Position numbers and translations under genes: made by a program
Shown here: piece by piece, positions 45,968 through 62,288 of the stretch
How positions within the stretch are numbered: the first letter of the stretch is position 1
Layout of the letters: every line of letters starts with the position of its first letter
Assembly: GCA_963811165.1 (NCBI GenBank)
Contig: CAWEQH010000010.1
Coordinates: 768,001 to 832,000 of the forward strand
From: an uncultured Nitrospiraceae bacterium
GTDB taxonomy: Bacteria; Nitrospirota; Thermodesulfovibrionia; Thermodesulfovibrionales; UBA6898
DNA length: 64,000 nucleotides
Direction of reading: 5' to 3'
Notes under the pieces: generated by a model
The model's input: the letters and a program-made list of their open reading frames with translations, nothing else
Database searches by the model: none
What the model was told of the DNA's origin: nothing

Positions 45968-46125
45968 ACGGATTATATTTCCTTCAGGATGCAACACTCC
46001 AGCAACCTTTCTTCCTGAAAGTCGCGCTTTTCAAAATCTTCACAATGGTGTAAGTTATTATTTGAGCCTTCCCCGAATTGATGGACACACCTAAAGATTT
46101 GTAAGATGGAAAAGGAGGTGTGTGT

Positions 46126-46440
46126 ATGGGGAAAGAGGATAGGCGTCGTCATTTCACGAGAGAGTTCAAGAGGAATGCTGTTCACCTTGTGACGGAGAAG
46201 GGTATGCCGGTAGGGAAGGTAGCTCGGGACCTTGATATTCATCCCAACTTACTTCATTTATGGAGAAGGAGGTTGCTGAAAGACGGGGAGAAGGCATTTG
46301 TGGGGAAAGGCCATTCAAGTCCGGAGGGAGCGGAGATAAAGCAGCTTCGGAAGGAATTGGAAAGGGTGAGGGAAGAGAGGGACATTTTAAAAAAAGCCTT
46401 GGCCGTATTCTCCAAACGCAGCAGACGAAGTACGGGTTGA
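46126..46440 (+). CDS. IS3-family transposase OrfA
   Basis: FTREFKRNAV HTH, leucine zipper ..EERDILKKA. A7G slippery run at 46389-46396. Confidence 0.92.
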   Translation: MGKEDRRRHFTREFKRNAVHLVTEKGMPVGKVARDLDIHPNLLHLWRRRLLKDGEKAFVGKGHSSPEGAEIKQLRKELERVREERDILKKALAVFSKRSRRSTG

Positions 46441-47282
46441 TGGAAGAGCATCGGGAGAAGTACAGGGTGGGAAGCATGTGCAAGGTGTTAAAGGTATCCA
46501 GGAGTGGGTATTATGCGTGGCGCAGCCGTCCGCTTAGCAGGAGGCAAAAGGACAACCAGGAGTTGCTGGGACACATACAGGAGATCCACAGAAGAAGCAG
46601 GAAGCTGTACGGGAGCCTAAGGATCACGGCTGAACTCAATGATGAGGGTGTCAAATGCGGGAAGAACCGGGTAGCCAGGATCATGAAGGATCATGCCATA
46701 TGCGGGGAAGTGAAGAGGAGGAGGTTTAGGCGGACTACCGATTCACGGCATGATTATGCTCTGGCGGCAAACCTGCTGATTGGCAAGAGACAGACCGATG
46801 GGGTATGGGCATCAGATATTACGTTTGTTCCTACTTCCGAGGGGTGGTTGTATGTGGCAGCTGTGATAAATGTGAAAAGCAGAAGAGTTATAGGGTTGTC
46901 CATGAGCGATAAACTTTCTCAGGAACTCGCCTCTGATGCGCTAAAAGCGGCAGCCAGCAGGCAGAGCCCTCCTGAGGGGTTGATCCACCACTCCGATCGA
47001 GGCAGGCAGTACGCGAGTTATGCATATCAGGAGCTTCTCAGAGAATACGGCATTACTCCGAGTATGAGCAGAAGTGGCAATTGCTATGACAATGCCTATG
47101 CGGAGTCATTTTTCGGAACGCTCAAGACGGAATTGGTCCACGGTGAGAAGTACCGTTCACGGCTTGAGGCAAGGCTTAGTATCTTTGAGTACGTAGAAGT
47201 GTTTTATAATCGTCAGAGGAGACACTCGGCATTAGGGTACAGGAGCCCAGAGCAATTTGAACGGCTCCTTGATGAAACTTAA
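46389..47282 (+). CDS. IS3-family transposase OrfB (reached by -1 frameshift)
   Basis: SRSGYY, YGSLRI, DDE motifs WASDIT / HHSDRG / NAYAESFF. Confidence 0.9.
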   Translation, partial: KKSLGRILQTQQTKYGLMEEHREKYRVGSMCKVLKVSRSGYYAWRSRPLSRRQKDNQELLGHIQEIHRRSRKLYGSLRITAELNDEGVKCGKNRVARIMKDHAICGEVKRRRFRRTTDSRHDYALAANLLIGKRQTDGVWASDITFVPTSEGWLYVAAVINVKSRRVIGLSMSDKLSQELASDALKAAASRQSPPEGLIHHSDRGRQYASYAYQELLREYGITPSMSRSGNCYDNAYAESFFGTLKTELVHGEKYRSRLEARLSIFEYVEVFYNRQRRHSALGYRSPEQFERLLDET

Positions 47283-47529: not shown

Positions 47530-50500
47530 TTACTCTCCCGGCGTCCATTTCGCCAGGTGTTTTAGATATTTCCATCTCCTCTTTACGTTCGCCTCGGCCT
47601 GTTTCATGAGCTCGGCCGCAAGATCGGGCTTGCTCATCTTTAGGGCCCTGTAACGGTTCTCCTTGTAAGCGTATTCCTCGAACGATATTGTCGGCTCCTG
47701 GCTGTCGATTATAAAAGGCGGCTTCCCCTCTGCCTCCAGATCGGGATTGAAGCGGAAAAGCGGCCAGTGCCCGCAGGAGACCGCCCTCTTCTGCTCGTCA
47801 ACGCCCCTGCCCATGTCTATCCCCTGAGCTATGCATGTCGCGTAAGCGACAACCAGTGACGGACCTTTATATGCCTCCGCCTCTACCATTGCCCTGACCG
47901 ACTGCGCCTGGTTGGCGCCGAAGGCGATCTGTGCAACATACACATTCCCATAGGTGGTCATTATCGCGCCGATGGACTTTTTGGGCGTCCTCTTTCCCCC
48001 GGCGGCGAATTGAGCCATCGCAGCAAGCGGCGTAGACTTTGACATCTGTCCGCCGGTATTTGAGTAGACTTCGGTATCTAAGATCATTATATTGATGTCT
48101 TCTCCGGAGGCGAGGACATGGTCGAGCCCGCCGTAGCCTATGTCATAAGCCCACCCGTCACCGCCGATGGCCCAGACCGTCTTTTTTACGAGATAGTCGG
48201 CAAGCGACGCGAGACTCTTCGCCTCGGGCGAGACATCCTTGGAAATCAACTTCTTTAGTTCTTCGACCCTGGCCCTCTGCTCTTCGATCCCCTTTTGAGT
48301 CGACTGGTCCGAATTCTTAAGCGAGTCGAAGAGACCCCTTGCCGACGAATACTCAGTCCTCGCCGAAATCCTCTCAAGGAGTTCGAGCGCCTGTGACCTG
48401 AATTTGTCCACCGTCTGCTTCATGCCGAATCCGAATTCCGCGTTATCTTCAAACAGCGAATTGGCCCATGCCGGTCCCCGGCCGTCGGCCCGCTTAGTAT
48501 AAGGCGTAGTCGGAAGATTTCCGCCGTAGATGGAAGAGCATCCGGTGGCGTTGGCGATAAGAAGCCGGTCCCCGAAGAGTTGCGTCAACAGTTTTATATA
48601 AGGCGTCTCGCCGCAGCCGGCACAGGCGCCGCTGTACTCAAACAAGGGCCTGACCAACTGGCTCCCCTTTATCGTCATGACGTTAAACCGCGACGGGTCG
48701 GTCTCAGGAAGGGAGAGGAAAAAGCGATAATTCTCAGCCTCCTGAGCCCTCAGGGGTTCCTGGAACTTCATGTTGATCGCCTTAAAGCCGGGTATCTTCT
48801 TGCCGTCGGCATCCTTCTTGAATCCGGGGCAGACATGCACACAGGAGCCGCAACCGGTGCAGTCCTCAGGTGCCACCTGGACCGTAAATTTCAACCCCTT
48901 GAACTCATTGCCCTTCCCGTCGACGGACTTGAAGGTCTCAGGGGCGTCCTTCAGCAGAGACCCATCGTAGGCCTTTATCCTTATCGTGGCGTGCGGACAT
49001 ACGAAAGAGCATTGGCCGCACTGGATGCAGATGTCAGGCTCCCACACCGGGATATGGACTCCGATGTTGCGCTTCTCAAACTGAGTGGTGCCCGTAGGCC
49101 ATGTGCCGTCTACGGGAAGAGCGGAGACCGGCAGCGAATCGCCGTTGCCGGCGATCATCGTGGCGGTCACGTTCTTCACAAACTCCGGCGCCCCTTCAGG
49201 GACCGGGGGTCTCATCCTCTTTGCGCTGCTCACCTTGCCAGGAACCGGCACTTCCACGATATTCTGGAGGGCCTTGTCAACGGCGGCGTAATTCATCTGC
49301 ACCACCTGCTCGCCCTTCTTCATGTAGGTCTTCTTGATCTCACGCTTGATCGACTCGATCGCCTCATCCTTGGGAATGATCCCGGCGATCACGAAAAAGG
49401 CGGTCTGCATGATCATGTTGATCCTGGTCCCAAGACCTAGCTCCTCGGCAAGGGAAATGGCATCGATGATATAAAACTTCATCTTTTTCGAAATGAGCTG
49501 TTCCTGGACCTCCGCGGGAAGGGTATCCCATACCTCGTCTTTCTTTTGCAAGGTCGTCAGAAGGAACGTGGCCCCTTCCTCTGCCTTGGACAGCATGTCA
49601 TACTTCTCCAGAAACGATGTATTGTGGCAGGCGATAAAGTTCGCCTGGGGAACGAGGTAGGGATTATGGATCTTCTCTTTTCCGAAGCGGAGATGGGATA
49701 TGGTGATGGCGCCCGATTTCTTGGAGTCGTAGACAAAGTAGCCCTGGGCGTAATTGTCCGTCTCGGCCCCGATGATCTTTATCGTATTCTTGTTTGCGCC
49801 GACCGTCCCGTCCGCACCGAGCCCGTAAAAGAGGGCACGGAAAACCCCGCTCCCCTCGATGCGAAAAGACTCATCGTATTCAAGGCTCGTCCCGGCCACA
49901 TCGTCATTGATGCCGACGGTAAAGTGGTTCTTCGGTGACGAAGCAGAGAGATTGTCGAAAACGGCCTTCACCATGCCGGGAGTGAAGTCCTTGGAACCGA
50001 GACCGTAACGGCCTCCCACGATCTTCGGATAGCTCCTGAAGGCCGCTGTCCCTTTCTCCATCGCTTCGCCGACGGCCGTCCTGACGTCCAGATAGAGGGG
50101 CTCGCCTATGGCGCCGGGCTCTTTTGTCCGGTCGAGGACCGCGATCGCCTTGACCGTTGCCGGCAGTGCCTTGGCAAAGGCATCGACCGAAAAAGGCCTG
50201 AAGAGCCTCACGTTCACAAGGCCGAGTTTCTCTCCCCGGGCGTTCAGGGCGTCGACAGTGCTCTGGACGGTCTCGGAGGCCGAACCCATGATAACCACCA
50301 CGCGTTCCGCATCCGGGGCGCCGCAATAGTCGAAAAGGTTGTACCGCCTGCCGACAATACCCGCGAACCGGTCCATCGCCTTCTGCACAATGTCAGGCGT
50401 CGCGTTACAGTAAGTGTTGACCGTTTCCCTGCCCTGGAAATAGACATCCGGATTCTGGGCCGTGCCGCGAATCACCGGCCTGTCCGGCGTCAGCCCCCTC

Positions 50501-51114
50501 TGCCTCTGCTGAATGACAAGATCGTCGTCAAGCATCGCCCGCATGTCGTCAAAGGTCAGCTCCTCTACTTTCTGTATCTCGTGGGACGTCCTGAAGCCGT
50601 CGAAGAAGTGGATGAAAGGCACCCGTGATTCGAGCGTCGCGGCCTGGGATATGAGCGCGAAGTCCATCGCCTCCTGGACGCTCTGGGAGCAGAGCATCGC
50701 AAATCCCGTGGCCCTGCAGGCCATGACGTCCGAATGGTCTCCGAAGATCGAGAGTCCCTGACAGGCAAGGGACCGTGCGGTGATATGAAATACCGTGGGC
50801 GTGAGCTCCCCTGCTATCTTGTACATGTTGGGAATGATCAGCAAGAGACCCTGGGACGCTGACACGGTTGTGGCAAGAGCCCCCGCCGCGAGAGAGCCGT
50901 GCACCGCGCCCGCAACACCTGCCTCAGACTGCATCTGGCTGACCCTGGGGACCGAGCCCCAGATATTCACCTGCCCCGCTGCTGTCTTGGCATCGCATAT
51001 CTCCGCTATAGGCGAAGAAGGAGTAATGGGATAAATCGTAATAATCTCATTCGTCGCATGCACCACATGCGCACACGCCGTGCATCCGTCAACCGTTATC
51101 ATCTTTCGAACCAT
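47530..51114 (-). CDS. nifJ: Pyruvate:ferredoxin/flavodoxin oxidoreductase (single chain)
   Basis: YPITPSS, GADGTVGANK, two CxxCxxC ferredoxin motifs, GACAGCGE, GGDGWAYDIG, DTEVYSNTGGQ. Confidence 0.97.
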   Translation of the reverse strand: MVRKMITVDGCTACAHVVHATNEIITIYPITPSSPIAEICDAKTAAGQVNIWGSVPRVSQMQSEAGVAGAVHGSLAAGALATTVSASQGLLLIIPNMYKIAGELTPTVFHITARSLACQGLSIFGDHSDVMACRATGFAMLCSQSVQEAMDFALISQAATLESRVPFIHFFDGFRTSHEIQKVEELTFDDMRAMLDDDLVIQQRQRGLTPDRPVIRGTAQNPDVYFQGRETVNTYCNATPDIVQKAMDRFAGIVGRRYNLFDYCGAPDAERVVVIMGSASETVQSTVDALNARGEKLGLVNVRLFRPFSVDAFAKALPATVKAIAVLDRTKEPGAIGEPLYLDVRTAVGEAMEKGTAAFRSYPKIVGGRYGLGSKDFTPGMVKAVFDNLSASSPKNHFTVGINDDVAGTSLEYDESFRIEGSGVFRALFYGLGADGTVGANKNTIKIIGAETDNYAQGYFVYDSKKSGAITISHLRFGKEKIHNPYLVPQANFIACHNTSFLEKYDMLSKAEEGATFLLTTLQKKDEVWDTLPAEVQEQLISKKMKFYIIDAISLAEELGLGTRINMIMQTAFFVIAGIIPKDEAIESIKREIKKTYMKKGEQVVQMNYAAVDKALQNIVEVPVPGKVSSAKRMRPPVPEGAPEFVKNVTATMIAGNGDSLPVSALPVDGTWPTGTTQFEKRNIGVHIPVWEPDICIQCGQCSFVCPHATIRIKAYDGSLLKDAPETFKSVDGKGNEFKGLKFTVQVAPEDCTGCGSCVHVCPGFKKDADGKKIPGFKAINMKFQEPLRAQEAENYRFFLSLPETDPSRFNVMTIKGSQLVRPLFEYSGACAGCGETPYIKLLTQLFGDRLLIANATGCSSIYGGNLPTTPYTKRADGRGPAWANSLFEDNAEFGFGMKQTVDKFRSQALELLERISARTEYSSARGLFDSLKNSDQSTQKGIEEQRARVEELKKLISKDVSPEAKSLASLADYLVKKTVWAIGGDGWAYDIGYGGLDHVLASGEDINIMILDTEVYSNTGGQMSKSTPLAAMAQFAAGGKRTPKKSIGAIMTTYGNVYVAQIAFGANQAQSVRAMVEAEAYKGPSLVVAYATCIAQGIDMGRGVDEQKRAVSCGHWPLFRFNPDLEAEGKPPFIIDSQEPTISFEEYAYKENRYRALKMSKPDLAAELMKQAEANVKRRWKYLKHLAKWTPGE

Positions 51115-53043: not shown

Positions 53044-53070
53044 AAGCCCCTTTGAAAAAGGGGCTTTTTT
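53044..53070 (+). terminator. Intrinsic terminator after csp
   Basis: AAGCCCCTTT-GAA-AAAGGGGCTT followed by further T residues. Confidence 0.8.
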
Positions 53071-53332
53071 ATTTTTTCCCGCTTGCCTCGGCCTTGATCG
53101 CCTTCATCAGCTTTTCGTACTTCTCGGCCCCGACGCATTCCCTTGCCGCCGGACACCATTCGATGCAGGAGGGCTTCATCTCGCGGCCCACCTTCTTGCC
53201 GCATTTCTTGCAGTCCATCTCTGTCTCGTCGGACCAGATTTCGTTTACCGCATCGCACCAAAAACACCTTACCTCTTCCGGATACGGGTTCCTTATTTCT
53301 TTGCTTCCCGGACAACCATCTTTCAGTGCCAT
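53069..53332 (-). CDS. Small Cys-rich putative metal-binding protein
   Basis: CPG..CxxC..EIWSDE..CxxC..SCIEWC..AREC pattern (8 Cys). Confidence 0.75.
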   Translation of the reverse strand: MALKDGCPGSKEIRNPYPEEVRCFWCDAVNEIWSDETEMDCKKCGKKVGREMKPSCIEWCPAARECVGAEKYEKLMKAIKAEASGKK

Positions 53333-56988: not shown

Positions 56989-57051
56989 AGATACCTTGTA
57001 TTTTGATCGTTCGCTATTTTCTTCTGCCGGGGAAAACTTTGTCAAATGCGA

Positions 57052-57744
57052 TCATTGCCCCTTGACCGGCGGTTTGAGGAAATCGACCAGACTCATGATC
57101 TCTTCATTTTTGAGGGGTCCCCCGTGAGCGAGGTCCCACCCGGGCATCGATGTCTTCGCAACGCCTTCCCTGATCGCCTTTTCGATGCTTTCCCTGGACT
57201 TCTCCCTCATATCGCGCTGAGCAGGAGCGATCCTCCCTGCGCTGTGGCAGAACACACAGTCTGTGACAAAGAGGTCGAAACCCTGCTTTCCCTTCCCCTG
57301 AAGCACATGACAACTCTTACAGTTGCCGTTAAATATTTCCGACGGGGAGTACGACTTCATATGAACGGGGTCCTTTATCGTCATCCGGACCGCAATAGTA
57401 GTCTTGGGCGTTTTAGGATCGTTTGTATTCACCTGGACCGTCTTATATATGGTCCCGAGTTTCCCTCTTATGTCGACCGAAAGCCTTATCTTCCCTTTCT
57501 CTCCGGGCTTAAGACGGCTCGAACTAGCCATCGCCGCGGTGCAGCCTCAGGAAGGGACGAGGCCCTCTATCAGAAGGTCCTCGTCGCCTCTATTTTCGAA
57601 TTCGAAAAAATGCTCTACCCTGTCTTCCTTCTGGGTTATCGTGCCGAGGTCGTCTTCCAGTTTTTCGAAGTATACCGCCGGCTGCGCATGCGAAACGCCG
57701 CCTGCAGCAAGGAGAATAATTATGGCCAGGAATATTTTCATCAT
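57052..57744 (-). CDS. Secreted DUF1573 (S-U-G-C) plus diheme cytochrome c fusion; in-frame TGA at 57549-57547 (candidate selenocysteine, U66)
   Basis: ORFs 57547-57744 and 57052-57531 are in frame via LVPS*GCTAAM. Signal peptide, DUF1573 pattern ([21 protein letters not shown]), CKSCH and CVFCH heme motifs, SECIS-like hairpin. Confidence 0.85.
57503..57539 (-). promoter_or_regulatory. Putative bacterial SECIS element (DUF1573-cytochrome)
   Basis: Upper stem GATGGCT/AGCCGTC (7 bp, one G-U), loop AGTTCG preceded by a 21-nt spacer from the UGA, 3' bulge TTAA, lower stem CCG(C)GGC/GCCCGG. Confidence 0.7.
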
Positions 57745-57847: not shown

Positions 57848-60376
57848 ATGCAGAAGTTCATCAACATAAAAGGCGCCAGGGAACACAACCTTAAGAATAT
57901 CGATCTGAGGATCCCGAGACAGGCAATCACGGTTATCACGGGCCCATCGGGTTCTGGAAAATCCTCGCTCGCCATGGACACAATATACGCGGAGGGCCAG
58001 AGGCGTTATGTCGAGAGCCTCTCGGCATATTCCCGGCAGTTCCTCGAACAGCTCAGGAAGCCCGATGTCGATTTTATCGAAGGGCTCTCGCCCTCGATCG
58101 CGATAGACCAGAAAACGGTAAACAGGAGCCCGCGGTCGACACTCGGGACGATCACGGAGATATACGATTACCTGCGCGTCCTTTATACGAGGCTGGGAAA
58201 GGCCTTTTGCTATAACTGCGGGTCCGAAATATCGACCCAGGAATCCAGGGACGTTATGCAGGCGATTTTATCGCTGCCCGAGGGGACAAGGATCCAGGTC
58301 CTTGCACCCATCGTAAAGGACAGAAAAGGCAACTACAGGAAAGAGCTCCAGGAAATGAGAAACGAGGGGTTCGTAAGGGCGAGGATCGACAACGCCATGG
58401 CTGACCTCACCCAGGAGATCATCCTCGAAAAAAAGAAACGTCATACCATAGAGATAGTCATCGACAGGCTGATTATCAAGAGTGGTATAGAACGGCAGCT
58501 TACGGAGGCGGTCGACACCGCTTTTAAATATTCGGACACGGTGGTGGCCAACCTGCTGAGGGAAGACAGGGACATCCTTTTTTCAAGGACCACGGCATGC
58601 CAGAAATGCGGGATAAGCTATCCCGAGATATCCCCGAGATTCTTCTCCTTTAACAGTAAGGCGGGTGCATGTCCGGCCTGTAACGGCCTGGGGTTCAGGG
58701 GCATATCCGAAGACACACAGGAACTCGGCGAAGAGCGCTTCTGCCGGGCGTGCAAGGGGTTCAGATTGAGACGCGAGGCGCTGAGTGTGAAGTTCATGGG
58801 AATTCATATCGGTGAGCTAAGCAGGATGGCGGTTTACGATGCCCTCTCCTTCCTCGAAAGACTGAATTTGACCGAAAGGGAAGGTATCATCGCCTCACGC
58901 ATCCTCAAAGAAGTCAGGGACAGGCTCTCTTTTCTCGCAAAGGTCGGCCTGGGATATCTTACGCTCGACAGACCGTCGCTCACCCTCTCCGGGGGAGAGG
59001 CCCAGAGGATCAGACTTGCCACCCAGATGGGCTCCTCCCTCACCGGCGTGCTTTATGTGCTCGATGAGCCGAGCATAGGGCTCCATCCGAGGGACTGCGC
59101 AAAACTCCTCGATAGCCTTTCTTCGATACGGGACGCGGACAATACGATCATCATAGTCGAGCATGACGAAGAGACCATCAGATGGGCCGACCATATCATA
59201 GATATGGGTCCAGGCGCCGGCGTCAGGGGAGGATGGGTCGTAGCGGTGGGAACGCCCGGGCAGATACAAAAAGATGAGAGGTCGCTGACCGGCCAATACC
59301 TTAACGGATCTCTTTCCATAGAAATACCGGGCAGAAGGAGAAGGCCGGAAGACTTCATCGGCATAAGGGGCGCATCAGAACATAATCTCAAGGACCTTGA
59401 CGTAGATATCCCCCTGAAGCTCTTTACCTGTGTCACCGGGGTGTCGGGGTCGGGTAAAAGCACCCTGGTCTTCGACATCCTTTACCGGGCTGCGGAAAAA
59501 AAGTTTTCTGCGGGACAGGACCTTGTCCCGCCCGGGAAATACAGGGAGATTACCGGACTGGACCTTGTCGACCGTGTAATAAGCGTCGACCAGGCGCCCA
59601 TAGGACGGACCCCGAGGTCGAACCCGGCAACCTATACAGGGTTCTTCTCTTTTATCAGGGAACTTTTCGCCATGCTCGCTGAATCAAAGGTGAGGGGCTA
59701 TAAGACTTCGAGGTTCAGTTTCAACGTTTCAGGCGGCCGGTGCGAATCCTGCCGGGGCAACGGTCTGATCAAGGTCGAGATGCATTTTCTGCCGGACGTG
59801 TATGTGGAGTGCGACAAGTGCAAAGGGAGGAGATACAACGCCGAGACACTCGAGATACGATATAAGGAGAAGAACATCGCCGACGTCCTTGATATGACCG
59901 TATCCGAGGCGCTCCGGTTCTTCGAAAACATCCCGCATGTCCGAAAGCGGCTGGAGGTACTTGAAGAGATAGGGCTCGGATATCTTCAGCTCGGCCAGCC
60001 GGCAACGACTCTCTCCGGCGGAGAGGCGCAGAGGATAAGACTTTCCCGGGAACTTGCAAGGAAGGCCAGAGGCAAAACCCTCTATATATTCGACGAGCCG
60101 ACAACCGGCCTACATTTCGTCGACATACAAAAACTGCTCGACGTGCTGAATTTGCTCGTCGACCAGGGCAATACCGTAGTCGTGATAGAGCATAACCTGG
60201 ATATCATAAAATCGGCCGACCACATAATAGACCTGGGACCGGAGGGCGGAGAAGCCGGGGGGAGCGTCGTTGCGGAAGGCGCCCCTGATGAAGTGGCCGA
60301 AAATGAAGCCTCCCATACGGGGAGGTTCCTCAAGGAGAAGCTCTCAAGGGGCCGGCTGGTGGGCGTATCCTCATGA
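57848..60376 (+). CDS. uvrA: Excinuclease ABC subunit A
   Basis: True start [17 protein letters not shown] at 57848. Two ABC ATPase modules ([24 protein letters not shown] twice) and Zn fingers. Confidence 0.97.
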
Positions 60377-61386
60377 AGATAAAGATACTTCTTTTCTTGT
60401 TGCTCATTTTGACGGCCGTTACCATTTCGTGCAGCAAGGGCAGACTCTCGATGTACAAAAAAACAAAACCGCTTATGGATACCCTGGTGACGATCACCGT
60501 GGTTTCCGGGTCGGGCGAAGAAGCGGACAGGGCGACCGAACAGGCTTTTTCGGTCATCGAACGGTTCGGCGACAAGATCAATTTTTTTTCCGATAGTAGC
60601 GAGCTCTCTGCGATCAACAGGAATGCCGGGATCGCCCCGGTGAAGGTGTCACGCGAAACAGTCGGGGTGATAGAAAGGGCGGTCTATATCGCACAGAAAT
60701 CAGGAGGGGCATTTGATCCGACGATAGGACCTGAGATAAAGATGTGGGACTTCTTCAAAAAGGTGAGGCCGACAGATGCCGCTATTAAAGAAAAACTCTC
60801 CCTCGTAAATTACAGGGATATTATTTTGGACCGGAACAACTCCACCGTATTCCTCAGAAGAAAAGGCATGCTGATGGACTTGGGGGGTATTGCAAAGGGA
60901 TATGCTGCGGACCTGGCATTGACGAATCTCAAACAAATCGGTATCCGGGGCGGGATTGTTGCGGCAGCAGGAGATATCAGGGCGTTCGGTTTAAAACCGG
61001 ACGGTTCGTTATGGAACGTCGGGATCAAGAACCCGCGGCAGCAAAGCGAGGCCGACGAGCTGATTGCGAAGGCCAGGCTTACGAACAAGGCGATATCGAC
61101 ATCGGGTGATTACGAAAGATATTTCATCGAAGACGGTAAGCGGTACCATCATATATTAGACCCAAAAACAGGCCTTCCCGCCGACCAGTGCAGGAGCGTG
61201 ACCGTAATAAGCGATAGTGGTGTCTATGCGGACGGTTTTTCCACGGCGGTCTTCGTCTCAGGGCCCGAAAAGGGTATGAAGCTTGTCAGAGAGGCCGGGG
61301 TCGATGCGATACTCATTGACAAAGACGGGGTCGTTCATACAACACCGGGGATCAAAGGGATGGTGACGTTTGAAGACAGTCATTAG
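60373..61386 (+). CDS. apbE: FAD:protein FMN transferase (ApbE) lipoprotein
   Basis: Lipoprotein-like signal ending [41 protein letters not shown]. Confidence 0.95.
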
Positions 61387-61756
61387 AGACACCACTGTTG
61401 CCGATAAACTGCTTTTTCTCGTCCTGATCACGGCAGCCGTGGCGGGCATATTCATCTCAAGAGAAGCGATGCCGCAGGGGAACGACGTCATCGTAGAGAT
61501 TAACGGTAAAACCGCATACACGTTTGCCCTGGATATAGACCGAATCTTTCCGATCCCGGGACCTTTTGGAGAGACCGTCGTCGAGATCAGGGACAAGAAA
61601 GTTCGCGTCAGGGAGGCCCATTGCCCTAACAGGCTCTGCGAAAAACAGGGCTGGGTCGTAAAGGGGGTCATCGTCTGCCTGCCTAACCATATCGTCATCT
61701 CGGTCGGGGGCAAGGCTGCCGATTCCCCGAAGGACGTAGATGCAATTACAGGATAA
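61370..61756 (+). CDS. NusG domain II-containing protein (DUF1312)
   Basis: N-terminal TM, AHCPNRLCEKQG, IVCLPNH. Confidence 0.88.
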   Translation: MKTVIRDTTVADKLLFLVLITAAVAGIFISREAMPQGNDVIVEINGKTAYTFALDIDRIFPIPGPFGETVVEIRDKKVRVREAHCPNRLCEKQGWVVKGVIVCLPNHIVISVGGKAADSPKDVDAITG

Positions 61757-62288
61757 GTACCGGATCGCAGTCCTTTCCGCCTTTGCCCTTGCGCTTTACG
61801 GCATCGAGAGCCTCATTCCTACACCCATACCGTGGCTGAGACTCGGGCTTGCCAACATCGTGACCCTTGTGGCTCTGGTGCTTTACGGCTTTCGCACCGC
61901 AATGACGGTAACCCTGATAAGGGTGATTTTAGGCTCGCTCTTTACGGGAACATTTCTCGGCCCATCATTTGTCCTCAGCTTTGGCGGGGGAGTCACGAGT
62001 ACGGCGGCGATGGGATTGACCTATTTGGCTTTGAAGGATGTCTTCGGGCCGGTAGGCCTGAGTCTGATCGGGGCATTTTTTCATAATATTGCCCAACTGA
62101 CACTCGCATACTTCTTTTTCATACAAAGGATTGAGGCGATGTGTATCATCGGTCCCATCATTGTCCTTATAGGGACCCTGACCGGGGTGGCAAACGGAGC
62201 GGTCTCGGGTATTCTGATAAAAAAACTATTGAAAAATAAAGTCGGGAAAATTCAAAATGATAATGAAGAGAAGGGGCATCTGCAATGA
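61740..62288 (+). CDS. Gx transporter / heptaprenyl diphosphate synthase component I-like membrane protein
   Basis: [32 protein letters not shown]. Confidence 0.88.

Follow-up and report, generated by a model that had tools for sequence, protein, structure and literature searches.

The window (the whole 64,000-nucleotide stretch analysed) contains what is very likely, judging from sequence comparison, a hidden selenoprotein gene, a variant of the already catalogued DUF1573 U-G-C family, in which the TGA at codon 66 is almost certainly read as selenocysteine (Sec). The protein, predicted to be exported, could serve as a periplasmic thiol/selenol-to-heme relay for DsbA-like and similar CxxC partner proteins, a reading to which we assign about an even chance.

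The gene spans positions 57052-57744 on the minus strand, as do all of its features given below, and ends with the stop codon TGA 57054-57052. When TGA is read as U, it encodes 230 amino acids with a single internal TGA, codon 66, in the context P-S-U-G-C-T, and full-length homologues were found. Residues 1-20 (57685-57744) form a predicted Sec-pathway signal peptide, recognized by eye from a basic N-end, a hydrophobic core and small residues at positions −3/−1; homologues have the same pattern. In a Pfam profile search, the DUF1573 domain, of the Ig/PapD-like type, covers residues 26-115 (57400-57669; PF07610, 74.8 bits against a cut-off of 26.1) and includes the motif U66-G67-C68 (57541-57549, the in-frame TGA being 57549-57547), with TGA or TGC/TGT at the first position in homologues. 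The domain thus extends over the stop codon, as the earlier note had claimed. Downstream are the heme motifs C142-x-x-C145-H146 (57307-57321) and C163-x-x-C166-H167 (57244-57258), the latter at the start of a class I cytochrome c domain (Cytochrome_CBB3, 40.9 bits, residues 152-223). The AlphaFold model, built from a 73-sequence alignment (mean pLDDT 94.3, pTM 0.71), consists of a beta sandwich and short helices. Its first domain resembles 2QSV, a Porphyromonas structure of the DUF1573 type (Z 15.0, rmsd 1.5, 100 residues), and its last domain resembles the class I cytochrome 6RTD (Z 8.4, rmsd 2.5, 70 residues); structure-based fold searches of the model were dominated by the Ig domain. These results support the earlier proposal of one predicted exported protein that joins a U-x-C site to a diheme module.

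The Sec machinery, which the earlier note had suggested confirming, is present in the window's genome (G000), where tRNA-Sec was found and selA, selB and selD scored above cut-offs, selD itself having an in-frame TGA. A first genome scan with a single protein as query found no relatives; a genome search of the phylum matched 155 of 401 genomes. Among 30 fetched homologous loci with the motif, the codon aligned to U66 is TGA in 19 and TGC/TGT in 11, the Cys/UGA alternation that the same note had proposed to look for at position 66, and TGA at this very codon recurs across many genera at 35-52% protein identity. All 18 genomes with a full UGA-diheme gene have selA, which was found in none of the 11 f28 and 7 f24 genomes, families that use Cys. 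No selA match was found in G326, the genome of the nineteenth TGA locus (L035, which has an N gap), and of the 11 Cys genomes in the 30-locus set, 8 were without selA and 3 had it.

The SECIS-like hairpin that had been described at 57539-57503 folds as stated, but only its upper part is conserved, namely a 7-bp stem with a 6-nt loop at 57532-57513, 21 nt from the UGA, with a stability of −9.1 kcal/mol and GU at loop positions 2-3. This hairpin satisfies the published rules for bacterial SECIS elements (a loop of 3-9 nt that has a G close to its beginning, a distance of 16-37 nt to the UGA, stem ≤ −7.5 kcal/mol; PMC13188914), and about 1% of random genomic TGAs (196/20000) precede a hairpin that passes the same rules. 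The z-score of the 57539-57503 hairpin is −2.57 when it is folded alone and −0.98 to +0.10 in a context of 50-100 nt; thus, the element is not singled out by folding energy alone. In TGA genes, 93.2% of stem cells are paired, with compensatory changes at 6 of the 7 pairs, and this pairing exceeded all shuffles (0/500 as good) and all slid controls, whereas the same columns in Cys genes are 45.5% paired, like the shuffles. In a held-out set, at least 6 stem pairs were formed in 15 of 18 TGA rows versus 0 of 34 Cys rows, a wrong-site match (L176) being counted among the TGA rows; the motif search used there missed 5/23 TGA loci and 7/41 Cys loci. Kinship among the sequences inflates these counts, but the contrast between TGA and Cys genes is large nonetheless. 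The TGA and the hairpin were also present in one metagenome contig, the protein of which falls into a cluster with a record labelled NC10.

Taken together, the sel genes, the TGA/Cys alignment and the covarying SECIS bear out the earlier claim of read-through as Sec. The alternative, in which the TGA would be a genuine stop codon or result from pseudogene decay or a sequencing error, draws on the annotation of the family: translation table 11 cuts the gene into a 65-aa leader ORF and a 159-aa cytochrome ORF, the split that the earlier note had attributed to gene callers, and 29 of 52 matches are such cut-off products of 145-162 aa (63-69% of the query). We nevertheless consider this alternative extremely improbable, given the same-codon TGA across genera, the SECIS covariation confined to TGA genes and the co-occurrence with selA. 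Read-through of the final TGA as well, into an in-frame ubiA-like gene, was rejected because most homologues stop at TAA or TAG and have other neighbours.

Contigs of two runs, near-identical to the window, span the gene with 43-44 differences, and among the differences listed, none falls on the TGA or the SECIS. The listed differences cluster in 57108-57289 and 57697-57724, i.e. the cytochrome domain and the signal peptide, with none of those listed in 57290-57696; recombination or strong constraint could explain this pattern.

Both CxxCH motifs, which had been recognized as c-type heme motifs in the earlier reading, are invariant in 77/77 homologues, and so is Met200 (57145-57147), which in alignments falls on the MP of class I domains and is kept in 279 of 280 aligned diheme homologues; it is the likely distal ligand of heme 2. 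The candidate axial ligand named previously, Met129 of 'PVHM', was not conserved (6/77 homologues), and His128 (57361-57363) is the likely distal ligand of heme 1 instead. A His occupies the same column in 55/77 homologues and some position within the upstream segment in 73/77; His128 is present in 259 of 280 aligned diheme homologues (missing in ~7%) and in 28/30 of a smaller set. On the simplest reading, heme 1 would be bis-His (H128/H146) and heme 2 His/Met (H167/M200), and since these four residues would fill both hemes, there would be no need for Sec as a ligand. For cytochrome c maturation, G000 has ResB and three Cytochrom_C_asm (CcsA-type) matches. The short extra heme segment (His128...CxxCH) had no full-length match among the solved structures searched. 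A mean-field covariation analysis of 280 sequences (effective 186) revealed no clear contacts between the domains; the top inter-domain pair, T69-P201, is at rank 17 and lies in near-invariant columns.

The fused C-G-C form occurs widely. Of the best 150 matches, 57 representatives with lengths of 190-330 aa carry paired heme motifs. Atlas clusters retrieved with a Cys homologue as query are mostly from Nitrospirota, Verrucomicrobiota and Pseudomonadota. In another set, mostly from Vampirovibrionia, 71 of 80 loci were parsed, and 67 of the 71 keep CGC. In the tree, the Sec forms group in the window's class, likely anaerobes. G000 also has a paralogue without U-G-C (L001:1423-2103 = G000:C8 near 350739-351407, plus strand, downstream of an fdhD gene), in which both hemes, the His and the Met are kept and U and C are lost together; it nests inside the Sec clade (98). 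The joint loss in the paralogue clade indicates that U and C act as a pair. Conversely, in four other genomes (L160, L162, L165, L168), heme-less Sec-DUF1573 genes with the same SECIS hold the same uvrA-adjacent position as the diheme gene. Thus, from the heme-less Sec orthologues and the heme-bearing paralogue without U-G-C, the two modules are separable. An 87-aa Cys-rich ORF lies at window positions 53069-53332 (minus strand), and by eye, a look-alike lies directly downstream of the heme-less Sec-DUF1573 gene in L165. The family further includes proteins with multiple DUF1573 repeats and the diheme (P0057, P0058, P0062, P0112), with an added third heme domain (P0144, P0146, P0169) and with a fusion to an LGT-like domain (P0138).

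Gene neighbourhoods differ between the Sec and Cys lineages. The ubiA/mqnP-like and ubiX genes, to which the earlier note had linked the window's gene, immediately follow the gene in just 3 of 18 UGA-diheme loci, and a promoter-like match was found at 57045. The arrangement is thus local and carries little functional weight, and ubiA/ubiX were rejected as functional partners. Elsewhere in the window, ApbE, NusG_II and Hpre_diP_synt_I genes form a row at 60373-62288 (plus strand) that is repeated beside uvrA in relatives. Two overlapping ORFs at 46120-47282 (plus strand) resemble an IS3-type transposase pair, and a 1194-aa ORF at 47530-51114 (minus strand) bears a resemblance to pyruvate:ferredoxin oxidoreductase. 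Three diheme homologues (L064, L076, L077), two of them without CxC, are found beside a secreted rhodanese gene, located upstream, and a chemoreceptor gene.

Among Cys orthologues, a secreted DsbA-like gene (PF01323, with CPHC or CSHC) lies immediately upstream on the same strand, in 14/14 of the f28 and f24 genomes with a full-length gene, and in nine protein clusters of 422-429 aa, a single chain comprises DUF1573, the diheme and DSBA. The search pattern recovered the CxxC of DSBA in 5 of the 9 fusion clusters and in a tenth, shorter one; in L065, the reading frame continues into a DsbA CxxC at the contig end. At L061:2271-3378 (minus strand), a DUF1573-diheme-DsbA fusion is seemingly broken, with the DsbA CxxC part missing and the rest in another frame, owing to decay or misassembly. 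The f28 and f24 genes form one clade (99), so that the DsbA adjacency would be one event and the fusion perhaps a second. The Sec-type, heme-less and Vampirovibrionia loci that were searched had no DsbA-like neighbour, and G000 had no orthologue of the Cys-lineage DsbA at E 1e-20. Therefore, the partner claim is transferred from the Cys relatives, in which the DsbA link, new here and absent from the earlier note, was seen.

One candidate partner of the Sec form in G000 is itself a candidate selenoprotein, a secreted DsbA-like protein in which an in-frame TGA yields U-P-H-C (L078:1396-1983, plus strand = G000:C10:110047-110631). The motif and a short downstream hairpin were seen in all 12 loci inspected, and the gene is flanked by what we take to be an NrfD/HmcC-like membrane gene on one side and a cytochrome c peroxidase-like gene on the other. 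A role as obligate partner is not supported: the protein is common in f6 (10/10 genomes), where the DUF1573-diheme gene was not found (0/14). G000 additionally encodes a fusion protein (L079:1411-2427, minus strand) in which a VKOR-like domain (30.4 bits against a cut-off of 27.5) is joined to a DsbA-like domain with CPHC. In the f22, f24 and f28 genomes, neither DsbB (0/24) nor VKOR (0/24) was found; VKOR was present in 2 of 5 Vampirovibrionia genomes. In f29, a DsbA homologue is present in 34/34 genomes, DsbB in 0/75, VKOR in 13/75 and the DUF1573-diheme protein in 1/75 (a weak match). Because f29 is thus mostly without all three, the absence of DsbB/VKOR, which is common in the phylum, does not require the DUF1573-diheme protein.

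In the proposed relay, U66 and C68 would cycle between the selenol/thiol and the selenenylsulfide, which the dithiol of a partner protein would attack; the electrons would then leave singly, passing first through the bis-His heme 1 (H128/H146), next to the His/Met heme 2 (H167/M200) and finally to the pool of periplasmic cytochromes. The oxidising direction, with the protein acting as a soluble, heme-based stand-in for DsbB/VKOR, would be the likelier one, because class I hemes with His/Met ligation tend to have high potentials and CGC disulfides are near −167 mV; the CPHC motif is oxidising in character and Sec is suited to one-electron steps. The CGC value was taken from PMC3173608, which gives −139 mV for CsgC. 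Selenium lowers redox potentials (table in PMC2672033), so that electron flow in the Sec form could run the opposite way. Electron flow from heme to thiol has been described for the diheme cytochrome NapB, which reduces the thioredoxin-fold CcmG (PMC8782879); together with the redox-active Ig folds, this provides a precedent for either direction. Only tentatively do we propose that the protein re-oxidises DsbA and so constitutes a third route of disulfide formation, in which a soluble protein would pass electrons from DsbA via C-G-C/U-G-C to cytochromes, not quinones, the Sec version easing the step from two- to one-electron transfer in anaerobes.

Several other functions could be served by the same architecture. 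An unlikely one is that of a small-molecule reductase or oxidase akin to MccSep, in which Sec would attack polysulfide, selenite or peroxide while the hemes supply or remove electrons. Catalysis by heme plus Sec has a precedent (PMC13510729), and the rhodanese genes at the three loci named above and the clustering of Sec forms in one class of likely anaerobes would fit. MccSep, however, contains five hemes, including one with His/Cys ligation, whereas in the 230-aa protein both hemes would be saturated by the four conserved His and Met ligands; moreover, CxC is lost in 2 of the 3 rhodanese-linked homologues and the DsbA fusions indicate a protein partner. These fusions would be left unexplained as well if the protein handled periplasmic Cu or Hg, with U/C-G-C binding the soft metal and the hemes controlling the oxidation state in which it is passed to a chaperone. 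In 11 of 71 loci, most of them from Vampirovibrionia, the orthologue does directly adjoin a secreted HMA-like CxxC gene, whose product would also suit the relay as a CxxC partner. Of 7 f24 loci, 3 have a YtkA-like gene downstream and 3 a TlpA-like gene upstream by the ORF caller used. However, the HMA match is below its Pfam cut-off (23.8 vs 24.8 bits) and no recurrent metal-transport genes were seen beside Sec-type genes, and we regard a role in metal handling as quite improbable.

We are similarly doubtful, if marginally more so, that the modules work independently, DUF1573 performing its own selenol/thiol chemistry or serving as a binding scaffold and the diheme being a passenger electron carrier. 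The heme-less Sec orthologues at the same locus, the heme-bearing paralogue nested in the Sec clade and the many DUF1573 proteins without heme are all compatible with such independence; yet the fused CGC form recurs in Nitrospirota, Verrucomicrobiota, Pseudomonadota and Vampirovibrionia, and its short linker hardly varies in length. Least credible among the functional alternatives is that Sec66 serves as an axial ligand of a heme or lies on the heme iron, as Cys does in hemes of the TsdA/SoxA type. The strand topology in the model would put the loop bearing the motif at that end of the domain from which the chain runs on to heme 1, and His128 is absent from a minority of homologues, but H128, H146, H167 and M200 already account for four ligands, and U is kept where there are no hemes and lost where the hemes are kept.

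The DsbA link is the first functional handle that we found on DUF1573, a widespread domain of unknown function, and if the link reflects function, it would answer how some bacteria without DsbB/VKOR re-oxidise DsbA. The natural one-chain, all-Cys fusion (P0075 type) makes the relay directly testable in E. coli. In databases, the Sec form is hidden as a shortened cytochrome without a signal peptide.

As the earlier note had guessed, Sec-containing DUF1573 proteins are already annotated: DUF1573 with a UGC motif is listed as a predicted selenoprotein family (PMC9312934, PMC13188914), catalogued as OS_HP2, the name given in PMC1976440. OS_HP2 has the same PF07610 domain and U-G-C motif as the 230-aa protein; the C-terminal diheme is a feature of the latter, and the word 'heme' does not occur in PMC13188914. 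Against NCBIfam NF041425 (98 positions), the protein scores 64.6 bits and a Cys orthologue 85 bits, with a cut-off of 100; it is therefore a relative of OS_HP2 rather than a scored member. No description of a DUF1573-diheme fusion was found in the literature searched, which included few subscription papers and whose supplements could list one.

The likeness to DsbB and VKOR concerns the proposed role only, i.e. taking electrons from a DsbA dithiol via a cysteine pair. DsbB and VKOR are membrane proteins that use quinone (for DsbB, PMC2672033), whereas the 230-aa protein is predicted to be soluble with c-type hemes and did not match PF02600 or PF07884. The nDsbD domain and CsgC are Ig-like sandwiches with an exposed cysteine pair, as in DUF1573; CsgC has CxC, and nDsbD trades electrons with thioredoxin-fold partners (PMC3173608). 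Neither contains heme or Sec, neither appears among the fold-search matches listed, and the likeness to DUF1573 is one of description. Residues ~152-224 match class I cytochrome c (CcoP, cytochrome c6, the NirN c domain) by both sequence and fold, but in the 230-aa protein, the short extra heme segment precedes the class I domain. The known heme-Sec enzyme is MccSep/ExtKL, a periplasmic c-type cytochrome with a catalytic Sec, in which S-S chemistry is fed by hemes (PMC13510729), the 230-aa protein likewise being a predicted periplasmic heme-Sec protein. MccSep/ExtKL, however, is a tetramer with five hemes and a His/Cys-ligated active heme, compared with two CxxCH motifs here, and its model NF040886 gave no match to the 230-aa protein at E 0.1. 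With Sec in a separate Ig domain and in a U-x-C pair, the protein appears to represent a further heme plus selenocysteine architecture, distinct from the pentaheme MccSep type.
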